This document shows positions 12,196 through 54,629 of a stretch of 64,000 nt of DNA, piece after piece. The number at the start of each line of letters is the position of its first letter. Position 1 is the stretch's first letter. Under the pieces are notes generated by a model. The model worked only from the letters and a program-made list of their open reading frames with translations, made no database searches and had not been told where the DNA came from. Both the position numbers and the translations under genes were made by a program. Origin of the DNA: Candidatus Algichlamydia australiensis (GTDB taxonomy: Bacteria; Chlamydiota; Chlamydiia; Chlamydiales; JAJFMI01); contig JAXCHI010000004.1 of the NCBI GenBank assembly GCA_033977065.1, positions 320,001 to 384,000 of the forward strand, given 5' to 3'.

Positions 12196-12240
12196 ACTGA
12201 AGTTGCTACCCAGTTTCTCCTATAGAGAGGGGGATTTTTT
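12196..12240 (-). mobile_element. MITE family A, partial end
   Basis: ACTGAAGTTGCTACCCAGTTTCTCCTATAGAGAGGGGGATTTTT matches the reverse complement of the right end of 19546..19704 and 51545..51703. Confidence 0.75.
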
Positions 12241-12340: not shown

Positions 12341-13033
12341 ATGCTAACTGTAAATGAATACTTTAATCACTCTTGTACGCTCGCCAACGCAGGAAAAGAG
12401 CGCCTGGTCTCCTATTTTAAACCTGTATCAAGCTATGCAGAAACGTTTTTTAGTGAAGGAGCGAAAGAGACAATTGCTAAAAATCGCGTTCTAATTATAA
12501 CAGTTCTTTCAATTACAGCCCTAGGATTAACAGGGCTATCTGTTTATTACATTGCAAAGCGGGTCTTCAGTAAAACAACTTCCGATGCCAAACCTTCTCT
12601 TAAGAGGAGCCCAGAGTATGACAAAAATACAGGCAGGTATTCTAGTGCCGGGTGCTCTTTTGCTCTTCCTAATGGAATAAATCCCAAAGAGGAGGAGATA
12701 ACATTTATCCTTCCGAGTGGTGTAAAGCTGACGTTTTTTCAATATAAAGACCGTACAAAGTCCACAATTGATGATGACTTGAGCGCGTATACTACTCATT
12801 ATCAGAAAGGCTTGAATCAAGAACCCAAAAAAGGTTCTCTTGATAACGGACTTAAGTATCTCGCAATCTCTCCGATTCATGTTGAAGGAAATCCCTATTT
12901 AAAATCCTATACTATCTACAACGGAGAGGATAGATATAGGTTTACGGCGACTCATATAGAGCAAGCAAAGATAAAAGAGAGTATTGAAATGAATGCAATT
13001 TTAGAATCATTTACCCTTACTAAGGAGAGCTAA
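12341..13033 (+). CDS. Single-TM protein with possible PsbP/DcrB-like domain, paralog 1
   Basis: FF...NR-TM motif shared with the next two ORFs; C-terminal AILESFTL. Confidence 0.7.
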   Translation: MLTVNEYFNHSCTLANAGKERLVSYFKPVSSYAETFFSEGAKETIAKNRVLIITVLSITALGLTGLSVYYIAKRVFSKTTSDAKPSLKRSPEYDKNTGRYSSAGCSFALPNGINPKEEEITFILPSGVKLTFFQYKDRTKSTIDDDLSAYTTHYQKGLNQEPKKGSLDNGLKYLAISPIHVEGNPYLKSYTIYNGEDRYRFTATHIEQAKIKESIEMNAILESFTLTKES

Positions 13034-13034
13034 A

Positions 13035-13739
13035 ATGGCAGCTATAGGAACTACACTTTCCATAGCAGGGAGCGCTGCTCAAGCTTTACCTGGAGCAAAC
13101 ACTAACCAAGCAAAGACAATTGCTAACAGATTCTTCAACAATGATATAAAAAAAACATTTGTGCAAAACCGCACTCTTATTTTCGCTACTCTTACAGTAG
13201 TAACTTTGTCATCTACTGTACTCGCTATCTATTTTGTTTATCAAAAAAATGTAACCCTCAATAAAACAGATAAAGAAAATGAGTTCACGATTCAAATCAG
13301 TGGAAATCGTGTTTCTGTTTCTCCCTCAGGTTTTACTTTTCAGATTCCTTCAAGTACAAAACAACACGCAAATCAGAAATTTTTGCTACCTGAAGATTTA
13401 ACACTACAATTTTCAGTCTCTAAGACGAACAAGAGCATTGGTGATTATGTGGAAGAATTTAAAGATAATGCATGTTCAGGAAAGACGGAAAAACCGATAA
13501 GTGTAAATGGAAGATTAAGAACTTCATACGCAGGAGAGTTTGTTCCACAATTGTTTAGCGTTAATGGGGTTCAGGTTCTAGAACGTCGCCCTAAAAAAGT
13601 GCTTGAGGGAGTGTTTGAGCGGAGCTATTACATAGTAGGTGCAGGTCGCCTCTACCTACTAAAATTTTCTCACGAAAGTGATCCGTCAAAACTAGAAACT
13701 TTACAAAATGTTTTAAAATCAATAGTTTTTCATAATTAG
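13035..13739 (+). CDS. Single-TM protein with possible PsbP/DcrB-like domain, paralog 2
   Basis: RFF...NRTLIF-TM motif; C-terminal NVLKSIVF. Confidence 0.7.
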   Translation: MAAIGTTLSIAGSAAQALPGANTNQAKTIANRFFNNDIKKTFVQNRTLIFATLTVVTLSSTVLAIYFVYQKNVTLNKTDKENEFTIQISGNRVSVSPSGFTFQIPSSTKQHANQKFLLPEDLTLQFSVSKTNKSIGDYVEEFKDNACSGKTEKPISVNGRLRTSYAGEFVPQLFSVNGVQVLERRPKKVLEGVFERSYYIVGAGRLYLLKFSHESDPSKLETLQNVLKSIVFHN

Positions 13740-13748
13740 AGACTTAAG

Positions 13749-14471
13749 GTGACAACTGTAGGAAATATTATTACAGAAGCAAGCAAAGCCACTCAGGGTT
13801 TACCTGCAGCAAAAATGGACCGAGCGAGTTTTGTTGCTAGTACGTTTTTTAGCGGAGGTATGCGCAACTTTATTGCTGAGAATAGATCATTCGTTATTGC
13901 GCTTTCTGCAGCCACGCTATTTGGTACAGCTTATTTAGTTCATAAAATGATATCTGAAAAAACTGGAGTTAAGTATAACATCCAATTTGACCTTCCTGAC
14001 GGAGTAAAAAAGGCTGATTTAGAAAAATCTATCAATCTGGAAGTGGCCAAAGAGAGTGCAAAAAAAGAAATTACCGCTCGTCAAAAAGATGGCATTGTTT
14101 TTACTGATGAAGAAATAGCCTTTCTTTGTGCCGATCTGATAGAAATACAGCTATTTAAAAAGCCTAGTGCAAAAGAGTTATATGTATTTTGTTCCATCCA
14201 AAGCAGAGATCAAACGTTTGATTTTTCACAAATTCATACTGTTTGGACGAAATTCTATGGAAAAGATTTTGTAGAATCAACGCTCTTAACTTTGACAAGT
14301 GGGGAAAAAGCCGTCCGTTTTAGGGTGTCAGGTAAAGAAGCTTCTGAAATTGTCATGATTGAGAAAGGGGGGTTCTTTTACGGGCTCTGTTTTCCTTCTT
14401 CTGAAGTTCAGCTATTAACGTTTCGGGCTGATGTAACAAATCTGATCAATTCAATCACATTTCCCGAATAA
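13749..14471 (+). CDS. Single-TM protein with possible PsbP/DcrB-like domain, paralog 3
   Basis: TFF...NRSFVI-TM motif; C-terminal NLINSITF. Confidence 0.7.
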   Translation: MTTVGNIITEASKATQGLPAAKMDRASFVASTFFSGGMRNFIAENRSFVIALSAATLFGTAYLVHKMISEKTGVKYNIQFDLPDGVKKADLEKSINLEVAKESAKKEITARQKDGIVFTDEEIAFLCADLIEIQLFKKPSAKELYVFCSIQSRDQTFDFSQIHTVWTKFYGKDFVESTLLTLTSGEKAVRFRVSGKEASEIVMIEKGGFFYGLCFPSSEVQLLTFRADVTNLINSITFPE

Positions 14472-14525: not shown

Positions 14526-14746
14526 GGGGTGTTCTCTTAATTTATGAATTTGAGGGGTGGTTTTCTTTTTAGAAGAAATTTATTATAGAGGGTAAAAGCA
14601 GCTTGATAAAACTCAAGTTACTACCTAGTCTCTCCAGAAGGGGATGGGGGTAGCAACTTGAGTTTGATAAAATCGGTGAAATCTGAATAGCAAATCTACT
14701 CAGAAAGAAAACCGAACAGCAAGTTCAAAAATTCAGAGAACACCTC
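14526..14746. mobile_element. MITE family D (host of a nested family A copy)
   Basis: Imperfect TIRs GGGGTGTTCTCTTAATTTATGAA and TTCAAAAATTCAGAGAACACCTC; noncoding. Confidence 0.6.
14611..14663. mobile_element. MITE family A, 53-bp internally deleted form
   Basis: ACTCAAGTTACTACC...GGTAGCAACTTGAGT, flanked by the direct repeat TTGATAAA. Confidence 0.85.
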
Positions 14747-19545: not shown

Positions 19546-19704
19546 ACTCAAGTTGCTACCCCTTTCCCCCTTTGGAGAGACCCTTTTTGCGATCTACTTA
19601 GTTTAAAATTTCAGAAATGCTTGATAAACATTCCTTCAATTTGAAACGAAACATCTCATCAAAAATCCCTCTCTCCATAGGAGAAACTGAGTGGCAACTT
19701 GAGT
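19546..19704 (+). mobile_element. MITE family A, full-length 159 bp
   Basis: TIRs ACTCAAGTTGC/GCAACTTGAGT and 6-bp TSD TTCGAA. Near-identical to 51545..51703. Confidence 0.92.
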
Positions 19705-27672: not shown

Positions 27673-27724
27673 ACTCAAGTTGCTACCCAACTTATCCAGA
27701 AGGGGAAGGGGTAGTAACTTAAGT
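27673..27724. mobile_element. MITE family A, 52-bp short form
   Basis: ACTCAAGTTGCTACCC...GGGTAGTAACTTAAGT; similar to 14611..14663. Confidence 0.8.
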
Positions 27725-50243: not shown

Positions 50244-50887
50244 GTGTTTACAGGCATATGTTCAGGTGTGATGACACCGCAAGATACGATGTACTTGATC
50301 GCTGTTTCAGGCTTCATGTCCAAAAAGGTAATATCCTCCTCTGCATACATTAAGAGAAAACCTGTGGTCGGGTTGGGGGTTGTCGGAATCAAAACAGAGA
50401 AAAGTTTTTTGCCCGCCTTTTCTGAACAGGTTTTTGGTGACTCCCGTGATACAAGGCCTAAGATATAACTTCCCTCCTTAGGAAAGGGAACCATCACAAC
50501 TTGTTTAAAGCTCGTCTTATCTGTGACAAAGAGCGTTTTGATAATCTCTTGCGTGGTCTTATATACTTTATTCACCAGCGGAATGCGATGCAAAATCCGA
50601 TCGCTTAGACTGATAAGCGACTTAAAGAAAAACCAGCGAGCGATCATTCCTAGTAAGATTGTAAAGGCAAAAATTCCTAAGAGAATGAGCAGTTGAGAGC
50701 CGTAGCGAATTAGCTGTTCAGGAGAAAGAAAGAGAAAACCTCGGTTAGCAATTCCTGTATTTCGTAAAAAGTCTGTCATTGCCCCAATAAAGGGTTGTGT
50801 CAAAAAGTTTACGATAAAAAAGATAATCGCAATCGTAACAGCAAGTGGGAGAAGAATGACCATCCCCGTAATAAAGTACTTCTTCAT
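50240..50887 (-). CDS. DUF502 membrane protein
   Basis: FITG..ILLPL and PTTPNPTTGFLL motifs. Confidence 0.9.
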   Translation of the reverse strand: MKKYFITGMVILLPLAVTIAIIFFIVNFLTQPFIGAMTDFLRNTGIANRGFLFLSPEQLIRYGSQLLILLGIFAFTILLGMIARWFFFKSLISLSDRILHRIPLVNKVYKTTQEIIKTLFVTDKTSFKQVVMVPFPKEGSYILGLVSRESPKTCSEKAGKKLFSVLIPTTPNPTTGFLLMYAEEDITFLDMKPETAIKYIVSCGVITPEHMPVNT

Positions 50888-50902
50888 TCTTACGAGTATA
50901 GC

Positions 50903-51913
50903 TTACAAAACATTACTTGCAAGGTAGGCATTGATTTCATTAATTATTTCTTCGATGATTTTTGGTAGATCTAGATCATAAGCTTGATTTGCAACTGACA
51001 AATAATGCGCGCTCCATAATCTTTGTAAGCTCTTAAGTGCACCATCCGAGAAATTTACAAGACCAGCAGCTGTTTTTCTTTTAGAAAAAGTTTTATGCAC
51101 CTGCTTTCGTAATTTTTCCGTATTCAGCCTCTCTTTGTTTTTCAGAATTATAAATAAATCGTGATAATCTTTCATCCTGCTGTTTAATGAACCTTTTGAA
51201 ATCACTGTTTCAACTTTTTCTGAAAAAATAGCCCCGATTGGGTAAGTTTTTAAAACAATATCTCCTAGAAATAAAGGATTGTTTCGAAATTTCACTTGTG
51301 GGATTTCTCTTTCTGTCGGTTCGACAAGATCTCCAATGCCTATATCTAATCGAATTTGGTCTCGCATGGCTCCAAAATTCGCAGATAAAAATATACGAAA
51401 TCCAGGGTATAGCATGTGCCTTTGCATTAACGATTTAATTTTAACTAAATGAAATGCAAATCCATCTTCAAGTCGCATTGAAGCAATTTCTTCGAAAACA
51501 TAGTATAGCCTTGATTCTTCTGCATCAATTTGTCTAAGTAAAAAACTCAAGTTGCTACCCCCTTCCTCCTCTGGAGAGACCCTTTTTGCGATCTGTTTAG
51601 TTTAAAATTTCAGAAATGTTTAACAAACATTCCTTCAATTTGAAACGAAACATCTCATCAAAAATCCCTCTCTCCATAGGCGAAACTGGGTAGCAACTTG
51701 AGTTAAAAAGTCTAAATCGACAGTTTCTCGACCAATTCTCAGCAGGTAGGAAAGAAGAAAACCACCTTTAAAAACAAGCTTTTCACGATAGGGAGAAAGC
51801 GAAATTCTTGCTAAAAATCGTTCAAGCAATAGTCTCTTCCAACAATAGTTGAAAGAGACGTTGTTTCTTGCTGCAATGATCCTAATGCGATCTTTTAGTG
51901 TTTGTTCATTCAA
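50903..51913 (-). pseudogene. AbiEii-type nucleotidyltransferase toxin interrupted by a MITE
   Basis: The N part has ERFLAR, FKGG and RETVDLD; the C part has SRMKDYHD. Both parts are in the same frame, separated by a 165-nt insertion. Confidence 0.9.
51545..51703 (+). mobile_element. MITE family A, full-length 159 bp
   Basis: 16-bp TIRs ACTCAAGTTGCTACCC and 6-bp TSD TAAAAA. Confidence 0.95.
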
Positions 51914-52490
51914 TTACCAATGCCATGAGATAGGGTTCGATTCTTACCCTAAACTTTTTAGCATATGCTTGTATTTTTGGAATACTAATGGGATCTTTTT
52001 TGTTTTCTAGTGCACTCTTCAGCGAAGAAATAGCGATTTCAGGTCCAAGAAAACGAAACGTATCGATAATTGTACGTTCACGATCAAAGATAGGAATTTT
52101 TGTTCCCATGAGGTCAATTTCAGTTTTTCCAAGCTCAATGTTTCGAGTGCGCGTAAGGCGCACTTCAGGCTTAACTTTTATCGAAGTATTATGGTCGATC
52201 GCAATCCAGTGTTGACGAGGAAGCTGGTCAGTAATTTCATAAACTGCAAGAGCTGATGTTAGGCAAATAACCCCGCTTTTAATGGAGAGGGCTGTTTCAA
52301 TAAGATCTTCCCACTGAAAAAAGGGCTCTTCATAATCTGAAAATTTATATACCCCATGCCGAATGCGTTGGATAAGTTTCAGCTTTGCATAGTAGCTAAG
52401 TTGTGCTGAACTGATTCCATGAGCATGGGCATCCTTTGTAAAAAATACTGGAGTAGCTCGCAGAGCTTGAAGTTTTTCAATAAGTTCCAT
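51906..52490 (-). CDS. AbiEi type IV antitoxin
   Basis: N-terminal wHTH (RIRHGVY) plus SALAVYEIT and DRERTIID; overlaps the toxin start. Confidence 0.9.
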   Translation of the reverse strand: MELIEKLQALRATPVFFTKDAHAHGISSAQLSYYAKLKLIQRIRHGVYKFSDYEEPFFQWEDLIETALSIKSGVICLTSALAVYEITDQLPRQHWIAIDHNTSIKVKPEVRLTRTRNIELGKTEIDLMGTKIPIFDRERTIIDTFRFLGPEIAISSLKSALENKKDPISIPKIQAYAKKFRVRIEPYLMALVIE

Positions 52491-52496
52491 GTCTGT

Positions 52497-52545
52497 ATTT
52501 TAATATTAACACCCAATAACGTCAAATGGGTGTTAATATTAAAAT
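52497..52545 (-). promoter_or_regulatory. abiE promoter within a 19-bp inverted repeat
   Basis: ATTTTAATATTAACACCCA-N11-TGGGTGTTAATATTAAAAT, containing TTGACG-N17-TAAAAT on the minus strand. Confidence 0.8.
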
Positions 52546-53105
52546 TTTAGAAGAAATCGGTAGGGGAGTTTGGCATCTTCCCCTGCATAATCCACACCAA
52601 TACGGGGCGTGGTTTGAATTTCTCCAACTAGATTCGGATTCTCTTGTAGAAAGATCTGGTTGCGGGTGAGAGAAAGTCCTGTATGAGAGGTGGTGATCCC
52701 AAGTGCTTGGGTAAGGGTGCCAGGACCAGAAGAGAGGGGGCTGCGATTTTTGCGACGCTCTCTCATGATGGGTATTCCGTGCGTAGGATGAATTGCTCGG
52801 ATGAGAATGGCGTGGGGTGTATCTTTTTTGTGCGTAACAATATTGAAAAGGTGATGCATGCCGTAGCAGAGGTAGACGTAAGCGATGCCACCGGCTGCGA
52901 ACATAGGTTCGGTTCGGTTGGTGCGACGATTGCCAAATGCGTGGCAGGCGCGATCAGTGGCACCAAGATATGCCTCTGTTTCTATAATAATACCACCTGT
53001 TAGTTGGTTGTTAAAATTGGTGAAGAGTGTTTTTCCAAGGAGAGACTTTGCAAGAGCTGTTGTGTCTTCTTGTCGAAAGTAGTCGAGAGTTAGAAGATTC
53101 TCCAT
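52539..53105 (-). CDS. 3-methyladenine DNA glycosylase (MPG/AAG family)
   Basis: IIETEAY, AYVYLCYGMHH, GPGTLTQALGI and PRIGV motifs. Confidence 0.95.
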   Translation of the reverse strand: MENLLTLDYFRQEDTTALAKSLLGKTLFTNFNNQLTGGIIIETEAYLGATDRACHAFGNRRTNRTEPMFAAGGIAYVYLCYGMHHLFNIVTHKKDTPHAILIRAIHPTHGIPIMRERRKNRSPLSSGPGTLTQALGITTSHTGLSLTRNQIFLQENPNLVGEIQTTPRIGVDYAGEDAKLPYRFLLKF

Positions 53106-53483: not shown

Positions 53484-54629
53484 ATGGAAACAAACTTTGA
53501 AGAAAATATCTACGATTTGATAGAGGAGTTGGCACATTTCCAATATTATATCGAATCTGTAGATCGTATTTGGGATATCTTATTTCCAGATAACAAAAAC
53601 AAGTATCATCATATCAGAATTTCCCACTCGTATGATCTCTTTTACCTATTCCATATGGATGGCAATCTTTGCAATTTAGAGGTTGAAAAAAACAAGTGTG
53701 TGCGGGCTGGATCATCATTTGGTTCTCGCTCGTGTGATGATGGGAGTGAGTTTTTTGCCAAGGTTTGGAATCCTTTAATTACTTCTGCTCTAAAGTGGCT
53801 TCGCTTTGCAAAGAAAAATTGGATTAAAGCTGCCAAAGAGGTATATGCGTCTTATCCTCTTAACCGCCGCTATGGAGTCGTTTCCAACTCTTTTGTAAAA
53901 GCTTCGCTACAAAATCTCTATCATATTGACAAAGAGCTAGGAAAAACAAAAACGAAAAAATTTATTCGTTTAGTTGAGCAAGGATATTTTCATAAAAGCG
54001 AAAATACAACTCGAGAAACAATGACAGCCAATGATTTTTTTGAGTACTGTAAAATTGCCTACATAGCAGGCAAGCGAAAAGAGGACTATGTTGATGAAAA
54101 TTTGACAGGGCGCGAAATGTATGAGCGCTACGCTGATGGGCGTGATGAGGGTCTTTTAGAGATTTCCCCCGATTCGAAAATTGAATTTGCCGATTGGATT
54201 GATGGTAAACATCCGAAAAAATCGAGCGGTGGACATCCTTGGGAAATTAAACGAGGTGGCAATACTACCCACATTGATCTTTCCGTCTCACGCCCTTTAT
54301 ATTATCGAGATGAGGGTTTTACAGTCTCTCTGTGTGGGGCTTCTGCTGGCCGACTAAAGGAAACAGTTTGTATGTTTTTGGCTATTCAAAAAGCAGGTCT
54401 ACCCATTACGATTCATGATCCAGAAGGAATTCGAAAGAGGCTTCTTGCTCAAGACAATATTGGTATTATCCCCTGTCATCACTCGCTGCATCGAGCAAAT
54501 CAGCATTTTCATGAGCATGAAGATGTCTATGATGTTCTCTACTTTGATGATTTAGGAAGATTTAAGCAGAGGATCAAACCCTTTGTTCTTTGGGAACCGC
54601 TGCCAATTCTTAAACCTTTAACTCTGTGA
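53484..54629 (+). CDS. Hypothetical protein
   Basis: 381-aa ORF with conserved-looking ADGRDEGL and GGHPWEI..GGNTTHIDL segments; no family recognised. Confidence 0.75.
   Translation: METNFEENIYDLIEELAHFQYYIESVDRIWDILFPDNKNKYHHIRISHSYDLFYLFHMDGNLCNLEVEKNKCVRAGSSFGSRSCDDGSEFFAKVWNPLITSALKWLRFAKKNWIKAAKEVYASYPLNRRYGVVSNSFVKASLQNLYHIDKELGKTKTKKFIRLVEQGYFHKSENTTRETMTANDFFEYCKIAYIAGKRKEDYVDENLTGREMYERYADGRDEGLLEISPDSKIEFADWIDGKHPKKSSGGHPWEIKRGGNTTHIDLSVSRPLYYRDEGFTVSLCGASAGRLKETVCMFLAIQKAGLPITIHDPEGIRKRLLAQDNIGIIPCHHSLHRANQHFHEHEDVYDVLYFDDLGRFKQRIKPFVLWEPLPILKPLTL

Follow-up and report, generated by a model that had tools for sequence, protein, structure and literature searches.

The AbiE systems of Streptococcus agalactiae and Lactococcus, together with the DUF1814/MenT toxins, are the closest described counterparts of a locus that we have analysed in the genome of Candidatus Algichlamydia australiensis, where the toxin gene abiEii is split by a MITE, or miniature inverted-repeat transposable element. 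The window, meaning the whole stretch of DNA under analysis, comprises 64,000 nucleotides (contig C4, positions 320001-384000; GenBank JAXCHI010000004.1) of a 1.8-Mb assembly in 7 contigs that is 93.4% complete, and positions given below count from its first nucleotide unless a contig is named. In S. agalactiae, the toxicity of AbiEii needs each of the residues G49 and G50 of motif I, R63, D67 and D69 of motif II, K173 and R180 of motif III, and D192 of motif IV (PMC3985639), and T65 has been described as the phosphoacceptor (preprint 10.64898/2026.01.19.700257). The label of type IV toxin-antitoxin system, which an initial annotation of this DNA had used for AbiE, agrees with the view held in 2014, but the same preprint, from 2026, proposes to re-file AbiE as type VII.

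The chlamydial locus shares with these systems the bicistronic abiEi-abiEii layout with overlapping genes, an AbiEi of about 195 amino acids (aa) and an inverted-repeat operator placed over the promoter. The AbiEii motifs I to IV and a Thr equivalent to T65 are all present, and the proteins match PF08843, the PADLOC models of AbiEi and AbiEii, and the PDB structure 9hlo_B. Unlike the described systems, the toxin open reading frame (ORF) is split here by a 159-bp MITE between motifs II and III. In our opinion, the locus is most probably a recent insertional pseudogene of abiEii that has left behind an orphan antitoxin.

The interrupted abiEii gene

The locus lies on the minus strand, where the gene is found as two ORFs separated by the 159-bp element. 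Its parts are the following:

51704..51913, minus strand: N-terminal piece of abiEii, 70 native codons from a TTG start at 51913, the last of which read ...GRETVDLDFL
51635..51703, minus strand: element-encoded tail of the N-terminal piece, 22 codons and a TGA stop, for a total ORF of 92 aa (51913..51635)
51545..51703, plus strand: MITE copy of 159 bp with perfect 16-nt terminal inverted repeats, forming one long hairpin on the coding strand
51539..51544: second copy of the TAAAAA target-site duplication, which encodes the repeated FL that starts the C-terminal piece
50903..51550, minus strand: C-terminal piece of abiEii, a 215-aa ORF from a TTG at 51550

The other TAAAAA copy (51704-51709) supplies the final two codons of the N-terminal piece, and the hexamer encodes Phe-Leu on both sides of the insertion. 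When the element and one duplicate are deleted (165 nt, or 55 codons), a continuous frame of 281 codons results, whose junction DLDFL/LRQIDAEE aligns without gaps to DIDFLLTKLNAEE of nine intact homologues (278-285 aa). Within the element, the abiEii frame runs into three stops (TGA, TAA, TAA). The initial annotation had placed a 159-bp element between TAAAAA duplicates just after the RETVDLDFL motif, and had described both the added stop codons and the 281-aa frame recovered by removing 165 nt, all of which our analysis bears out.

Profile comparisons follow the same break. The Pfam family PF08843 (AbiEii) covers the N-terminal piece with its positions 1-42 (E 7.8e-11) and the C-terminal piece with positions 43-218 (E 1.8e-19), both above the cut-off of 22.5 bits, and the break falls between profile positions 42 and 43. 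The PADLOC model of AbiEii (PDLC02288, 294 positions) matches the pieces at 9-78 (E 8.5e-20) and 77-272 (E 6.1e-43), whereas the sole solved relative, 9hlo_B (“AbiGII”, 287 aa), aligns to them at residues 11-71 and 69-225. The closest intact AbiEii homologues are only 42-47% identical. Contigs from two sequencing runs, which are probably the source data, cross each junction of the element by 53 bases, so the junctions between element and abiEii are not a misjoin.

The position of the cut with respect to the catalytic motifs is of special importance. Following the published motif definitions (PMC3985639; preprint 10.64898/2026.01.19.700257), motif I (FKGG), the Arg, the Thr equivalent to the phosphoacceptor and the DLD of motif II are all in the N-terminal piece, whose FKGG...GRETVDLDF has the form hG[G/S]x15DhD with Arg and Thr, and aligns to RSTVDIDF of 9hlo_B and to nine homologues. 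Motif III (EKVETVISKG), with its Lys among hydrophobic residues, and motif IV (KDYHD, within NSRMKDYHD), with its +DxxD pattern, occupy nearly invariant alignment columns of the C-terminal piece. The gene is cut between motifs II and III, directly after the central catalytic beta-strand bearing the DxD, and because motifs I and II are in one piece and motifs III and IV in the other, the predicted active site is complete in neither of them alone. As encoded, the locus has no single uninterrupted polypeptide with all four motifs and represents a disrupted member of AbiEii.

A young family of MITEs

On the plus strand, the copy in abiEii begins with ACTCAAGTTGCTACCC and closes with its reverse complement. 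A search of the genome with the element gave 75 matches counting both strands, with identities up to 97% (E 1e-72), and the 55 BLAST hits merge into 39 loci on 4 contigs. The family has ten full-length copies of 159-160 bp without coding capacity, some 11 short forms of 45-119 bp in which two terminal repeats have little or nothing between them, plus solo ends and internal fragments. Nine copies have both ends with at most 3 mismatches at a spacing of 144-145. Exact target duplications of 5-8 bp, all different and AT-rich, flank 8 of the 10 full copies, with near-matches in the other two. These terminal inverted repeats, copy-specific duplications and many small, dispersed, non-coding copies are those of a MITE, as the element had been named from the start. 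On the coding strand, the copy in abiEii folds into a hairpin of -84 kcal/mol (z -9.25), and none of 200 shuffled sequences folds as well.

Over its 159 positions, the copy in abiEii departs from the consensus of the ten at only 3, and it is 96.9% identical to two siblings equally near to the consensus, a pattern that points to a star-like young burst, with the abiEii copy as one of its three youngest members. It is also the only genic copy among the ten full ones, where removal restores a long frame with 68 and 213 codons on either side; the remaining copies are intergenic or immediately upstream of starts. A single genic copy would fit purifying selection against genic hits in a compact genome, the survivor being either very young or located in a dispensable gene. 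Of the residues that are invariant in the alignment of nine homologues, 62/69 are kept (24/26 in the N-terminal piece and 38/43 in the C-terminal one), and the misses are mostly conservative. The near-consensus copy, the kept invariant residues and the single genic copy all fit a recent knockout, which was one branch of the initial annotation.

Antitoxin and probable operator

Upstream of the broken toxin, the remaining parts of the module are in place:

51906..52490, minus strand: abiEi antitoxin/regulator gene, 194 aa, apparently intact (PADLOC PDLC02254, E 1e-73, profile positions 7-196 of 197)
52497..52545, minus strand: promoter-like site and operator of the abiE operon, with a perfect 19-nt inverted repeat (52497-52515/52527-52545) and 11 nt between its arms

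The abiEi gene is directly upstream of the toxin, with an overlap of 8 nt with the toxin start. Its full-length match, its position and the inverted-repeat operator agree with AbiEi (COG5340), and the Pfam family AbiEi_4 also matches it, under its cut-off of 25 bits (E 1.2e-4, 22.6 bits). In two genomes of the same order (G019 and G027), homologous loci encode an AbiEi of 198-199 aa followed by an AbiEii of 289-299 aa. A scan of positions 50700-52700 gave 7 promoter-like sites, none of them within the MITE. One of the two best, TTGACG-17-TAAAAT (52525..52497, 10/12), is upstream of abiEi and overlaps the 19-nt inverted repeat; the other 10/12 site is inside the C-terminal piece (51175..51147). 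Since AbiEi autoregulates abiE through inverted repeats (PMC3985639), the 19-nt repeat would be the abiE operator, and the claim that antitoxin and operator had remained intact is upheld.

From these observations, a simple course of events can be proposed. A non-autonomous hairpin MITE, from a family recently active in the genus, has inserted into abiEii and would have inactivated the gene, the target being an AT-rich TTTTTA site that encodes Phe-Leu after the central beta-strand with the catalytic DxD. Translation from the native TTG would then end after 70 native and 22 element-encoded residues, giving a product with motifs I and II and without III and IV. The C-terminal 215 codons have no promoter of their own and are placed behind a long hairpin and a U run, with their sole start signal in the hairpin base, for which reasons little or no C-terminal product is expected. 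AbiEi, the promoter and the operator persist, and the locus would be an AbiE module at an early stage of pseudogenisation, with its antitoxin orphaned. A decay of the toxin before the antitoxin is to be expected: a cell can lose the toxin first without harm, which does not hold for the antitoxin.

A split toxin and other alternatives

Some features of the locus weigh against a plain pseudogene. Most of them relate to a candidate restart signal at the distal end of the element:

51548..51569, minus strand: Shine-Dalgarno (SD)-like stretch and TTG in the distal terminal repeat (GGAGG at 51569..51565, AAGGGGGT at 51564..51557, spacer AGCAAC, TTG at 51550..51548)

The SD-like string, the AGCAAC and the in-frame TTG had already been pointed out, and as a sequence they are there. 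The stretch AAGGGGGT complements the end of the genome's own 16S rRNA, ...CACCTCCTTT, with a spacer of 6-7 nt to the in-frame TTG, and the native start of abiEii is likewise a TTG. A private C>T change at 51567 (GGGGG to GGAGG) makes a canonical GGAGG, yet 14 nt from the TTG. A ribosome on the N-terminal piece passes the whole left arm of the hairpin before its stop at 51635, close to the loop, and the stem would thereby be opened; when the left arm is removed from the predicted fold, the five G's of the SD-like run (51562..51558) become unpaired with probabilities of 0.24-0.78. Finally, there is no decay in either piece, with no frameshifts or stops outside the element. This last point, also made by the initial annotation, holds and is weakly informative: by our own arithmetic, an insertion about as old as the copy's 2% distance from the consensus should have been followed by roughly 16 neutral changes over the 843 nt, only a minority of them stops or indels. 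With some 2% divergence since the insertion, the undecayed halves have little discriminating power and are compatible with a young pseudogene.

Such features could also be read as those of a split, two-chain toxin, in which the SD and TTG supplied by the MITE would allow the C-terminal piece to be translated in coupling with the N-terminal one, and both chains would reassemble into an active or attenuated nucleotidyltransferase under the control of AbiEi. We regard this explanation as unlikely. It is favoured by the start signal and its possible unmasking by the ribosomes that translate the N-terminal piece, by the family-invariant residues retained in both pieces, and by the retention of AbiEi and its operator. 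A further point in its favour is the existence of C-only AbiEii-like ORFs of 209-217 aa in 4 of the 12 public homologues fetched, out of 150 listed (P0014, P0024, P0041 and P0063), which start with Met a few residues beyond the break point of the window gene. AbiEii genes that are broken or have lost their N-terminal part may be common. When metagenomes were scanned with P0014, two distant loci came up, and the one of them that was inspected encodes a regular pair of full length.

The signal, however, is not specific to this insertion. The G-run and the TTG are the consensus of the terminal repeat at that end in the 10 full copies (one sibling reads AAGGAGGT), the TTG is fixed 5 nt from the element end with odds of 1 in 3 of being in frame, and the orientation of the insertion follows a genome-wide rule described below. 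In no other copy does the terminal TTG open a long ORF. In the fold of the full operon transcript, 20 of the 22 bases between 51566 and 51545 have a probability of about 0 of being unpaired. Among them are the tail of the SD and the TTG, which pair with the other terminal repeat in a basal stem of 17 bp, and six U in a row come after this stem. By our own reading, this hairpin and U run would be terminator-like; the scan tool does not model hairpins of such length. Even with the left arm removed, the remaining SD tail and the TTG stay in a weaker local helix (unpaired 0.0-0.08), and restart, although physically possible, receives no support. The stop of the N-terminal piece is 85 nt ahead of the TTG, which is far for termination-reinitiation. 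Moreover, the cut falls right after the central catalytic strand and leaves a foreign tail of 22 aa on the N-terminal piece, and the portions of the AbiE literature covered here offer no precedent of a split AbiEii.

A broader proposal seems to us just as improbable. In it, ribosomes on the N-terminal piece would melt the left hairpin arm and uncover the SD and TTG, the C-terminal piece would be made only along with the N-terminal one and complement it, the terminal repeat of the MITE would serve as a restart cassette that is portable and coupled to translation, and a rare, precise loss of the 165 nt would restore the full toxin. Were the C-terminal piece indeed translated from the terminal repeat, the locus would gain in importance, since the ends of MITEs would then quite generally provide restart signals by which a gene can be divided and still function.

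The C-terminal piece might alternatively be made alone and at a low level and act without catalysis, for instance by binding AbiEi as a decoy, or as a dominant-negative partner, an idea to which we give very little credence. It shares the same SD/TTG start signal and the undecayed C-terminal piece, and in the complex of S. agalactiae several of the AbiEii residues in contact with AbiEi (S110, R117, K188, K252 and Y253) come after residue 71 (preprint 10.64898/2026.01.19.700257). The obstacles to expression are nevertheless the same (the hairpin, the pairing of the signal and an element without a promoter-like site), there is a single AbiEii match in the genome and hence no second abiEii as a partner, and the piece bears no mark of selection.

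A reversible switch, in which precise loss of the 165 nt would restore the toxin and maintain a reserve of defence-competent cells, is highly improbable in our view. Either a transposase or slippage between the 6-bp repeats across the hairpin could bring about that loss, and replication slippage is well established as a cause of the precise excision of hairpins that have short direct repeats at their sides. The outcome would be a perfect, family-like junction, and the three youngest copies attest to recent mobility. Against a switch, no joint that skips the 165 nt is present in the contigs of the two runs that cover the site (98% of words; probably the source data), in which rare alleles are not visible. 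Four public runs hold part of the locus, as contigs, and the other two, from different studies, contain 273 and 172 identical bases of the C-terminal piece and end short of the site. Among the 10 hits of a word-index search in a set of 5.8 billion proteins there is no intact, near-identical AbiEii, the sole protein above 47% being the 215-aa piece of the window itself; an exhaustive profile search for homologues also reached a maximum of 47% identity. AbiEii was found in 13 of 40 relatives (best identity 45%) and in neither of the two genomes of the same family (G001 and G002), where the mpg neighbour protein has no match either, hence there is no orthologous empty locus for comparison. Nor was a transposase with the MITE ends found in the 93.4%-complete assembly among the two families searched, as detailed below. 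Selection for such a switch would probably be weak, as abortive infection benefits the kin and not the revertant cell. As a whole, the branch of the initial annotation that contemplated a restart signal and a two-chain or excision-switchable toxin is left unsupported: the signal is a family consensus that is paired in the transcript, the element has no promoter-like site, and neither an empty-site contig, an intact allele nor a matching transposase was found.

An assembly artefact, where two misjoined MITE copies would hide an intact gene or halves that are not adjacent, deserves almost no weight: repeated elements do break short-read graphs and no single listed contig spans the whole element, but the two flanks belong to a single gene, carry the same 6-bp duplication and continue each other exactly in the profiles, and contigs of two runs bridge each junction. 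Translational bypass of the 165 nt, or removal of the hairpin at the RNA level, was rejected on principle, since we know of no mechanism of either kind at that length.

Other copies and relatives of the MITE

Besides the copy in abiEii, the window contains:

19546..19704, plus strand: second full-length MITE copy, 93% identical, intergenic, with a TTCGAA duplication
14611..14663: mini MITE of 53 bp, two terminal repeats back to back, with a TTGATAAA duplication
12196-12239 and 27673-27724: further mini or solo forms of the MITE

About 10 more mini MITEs of 45-58 bp, which are just two back-to-back terminal repeats, occur in the genome beyond the window. They seem to be mobile themselves, because some have target duplications of their own, such as TTGATAAA at 14611-14663. 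Between a solo MITE end and a mini MITE, at 12341-14471, there are three tandem paralogues (230, 234 and 240 aa). In each of them, a single hydrophobic segment of membrane-like character is predicted behind the first 50 or so residues. A mini copy on contig C3 (388041) was considered as a second genic insertion, given a seeming restoration of a 205-aa frame, and was discarded: it is actually upstream of a GNAT gene with its own start. Next to it (C3:388035-388302; L056:1236-1503) the preceding gene has an incomplete second copy that covers about 35 residues from its C-terminal end.

The two substitutions private to the abiEii copy, at 51567 and 51681, face each other across the hairpin, and in the RNA of the coding strand they turn a U-G wobble of the consensus into a G/A mismatch, which may be a coincidence or a hairpin-templated event.

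The orientation of the family is another feature of its own. The eight full copies on contigs C2 and C4, with positive GC skew throughout, share the same orientation, which is reversed in the copy at the start of C3, where the skew is negative; 9 of 9 assignable full copies are consistent with the GC skew, the copy on C7 being unassigned. This is consistent with a fixed orientation relative to the direction of replication. Elements that have terminal repeats and target duplications do not usually behave in this way.

Outside this genome, the family was detected in one of 40 relatives, a genome of the same genus (76% complete) with 3 matches and a best identity of 77%. A scan of 185,579 species genomes with the 16-nt terminal repeat gave at least 102 stretches, which is about the chance level (some 280 expected in 596 Gb on both strands, by our own arithmetic), and only 2 of 80 fetched loci (L117 and L074, both in one metagenome-assembled genome titled Chlamydiae) match past ~25 nt. 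In L117 (2501-2654), the same terminal repeats and a 6-bp duplication enclose an unrelated interior. Across genomes, the family is defined by its terminal repeats rather than by its cargo, and as the L117 element shares the ends but not the interior, one type of transposase seems to move several unrelated cargoes in this group.

With respect to the parent transposase, no pair of MITE ends at 0.7-3 kb encloses a transposase in the assembly; such pairs enclose ordinary genes (tRNA synthetase, ankyrin and membrane proteins). The transposase genes of the two families searched, PF01609 and PF00665, have other ends or are fragments. An IS5-type insertion sequence (IS) of 1110 bp and another IS were ruled out as parents, as their ends are unrelated. 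The two copies of the IS5-type element (C2:397645-398754 and C3:388891-390000) are 99.8% identical, and its transposase spans two frames (239 + 108 aa), possibly through programmed frameshifting or decay.

Genomic context of the locus

Housekeeping genes surround the module on the same strand, with mpg upstream, and two DUF502 genes and holC downstream. Beside mpg there is an ORF of 381 aa (53484-54629) without a match in Pfam or PADLOC. The genome has at least 3 intact TLC nucleotide transporters, which are markers of an intracellular lifestyle, and by the labels of the runs it is present in dinoflagellate, coral and marine metagenomes. The organism is probably a host-restricted intracellular bacterium with a dispensable abortive-infection module, and its lifestyle would fit a relaxed need for phage defence. 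Another TLC transporter gene is broken (C2:62034-63490), with two adjacent matches and one TAA and two TGA inside. The Pfam family Chlam_OMP6 (PF03504) matched neither this genome nor the controls and is uninformative about the phylum.

Under our preferred explanation, an insertional pseudogene of abiEii, the locus would be an example of a mobile element that disables an immunity gene, caught at an early stage, with a broken toxin, an intact antitoxin and no further decay. It would illustrate the expected order of decay of a toxin-antitoxin pair in a host-restricted bacterium. It also brings to light a MITE family that is undescribed and apparently was active not long ago, in an intracellular lineage without cultured members; its orientation with respect to GC skew is strikingly uniform.

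Comparison with known mobile elements

Dispersed repeats with signals for gene expression have been described before. The Neisseria REP2 and the Borrelia inverted-repeat units bear a promoter, a ribosome-binding site as well as an ATG (PMC3184786), and the MITE reported here is like them in that the end of a dispersed repeat has a string resembling a ribosome-binding site and an outward start codon. Those units, in contrast, carry a promoter and are found upstream of intact genes, whereas the MITE has no promoter-like site, keeps its signal in a hairpin stem and faces the rear two-thirds of a broken gene.

A second comparison can be made with the Rickettsia palindromic elements (RPE), which are inserted into protein genes without disturbing the frame (Ogata 2000, cited in PMC3184786). 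Both are palindromic repeats of intracellular bacteria with a length that keeps the frame, but RPEs are read through as peptide segments, and the element in abiEii has three in-frame stops, so that the frame-preserving length of 165 nt is without translational effect.

The closest parallel is with the knockout of genes by small mobile elements. MITEs are known to inactivate genes (Delihas 2011, PMC3184786), and IS insertions into cas genes have been reported to disable CRISPR-Cas (PMC10359306). The insertion in abiEii shares with the MITE and IS knockouts, some of them of defence genes, a small non-autonomous element, terminal repeats, a target duplication and stops within an immunity gene. 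It differs in its target, the toxin half of a toxin-antitoxin defence pair that belongs to an intracellular bacterium, and in that the MITE family was found in a single genus among the 41 genomes searched. In the titles and abstract openings of the literature on MITEs with toxin-antitoxin systems or Chlamydiae, we found no MITE in an abiE gene and no report of this MITE family. The inactivation of a gene by a MITE is of an already known kind, and what has happened at this locus is most likely an ordinary kind of gene loss, of which a MITE inside an abiE toxin gene constitutes a new instance.

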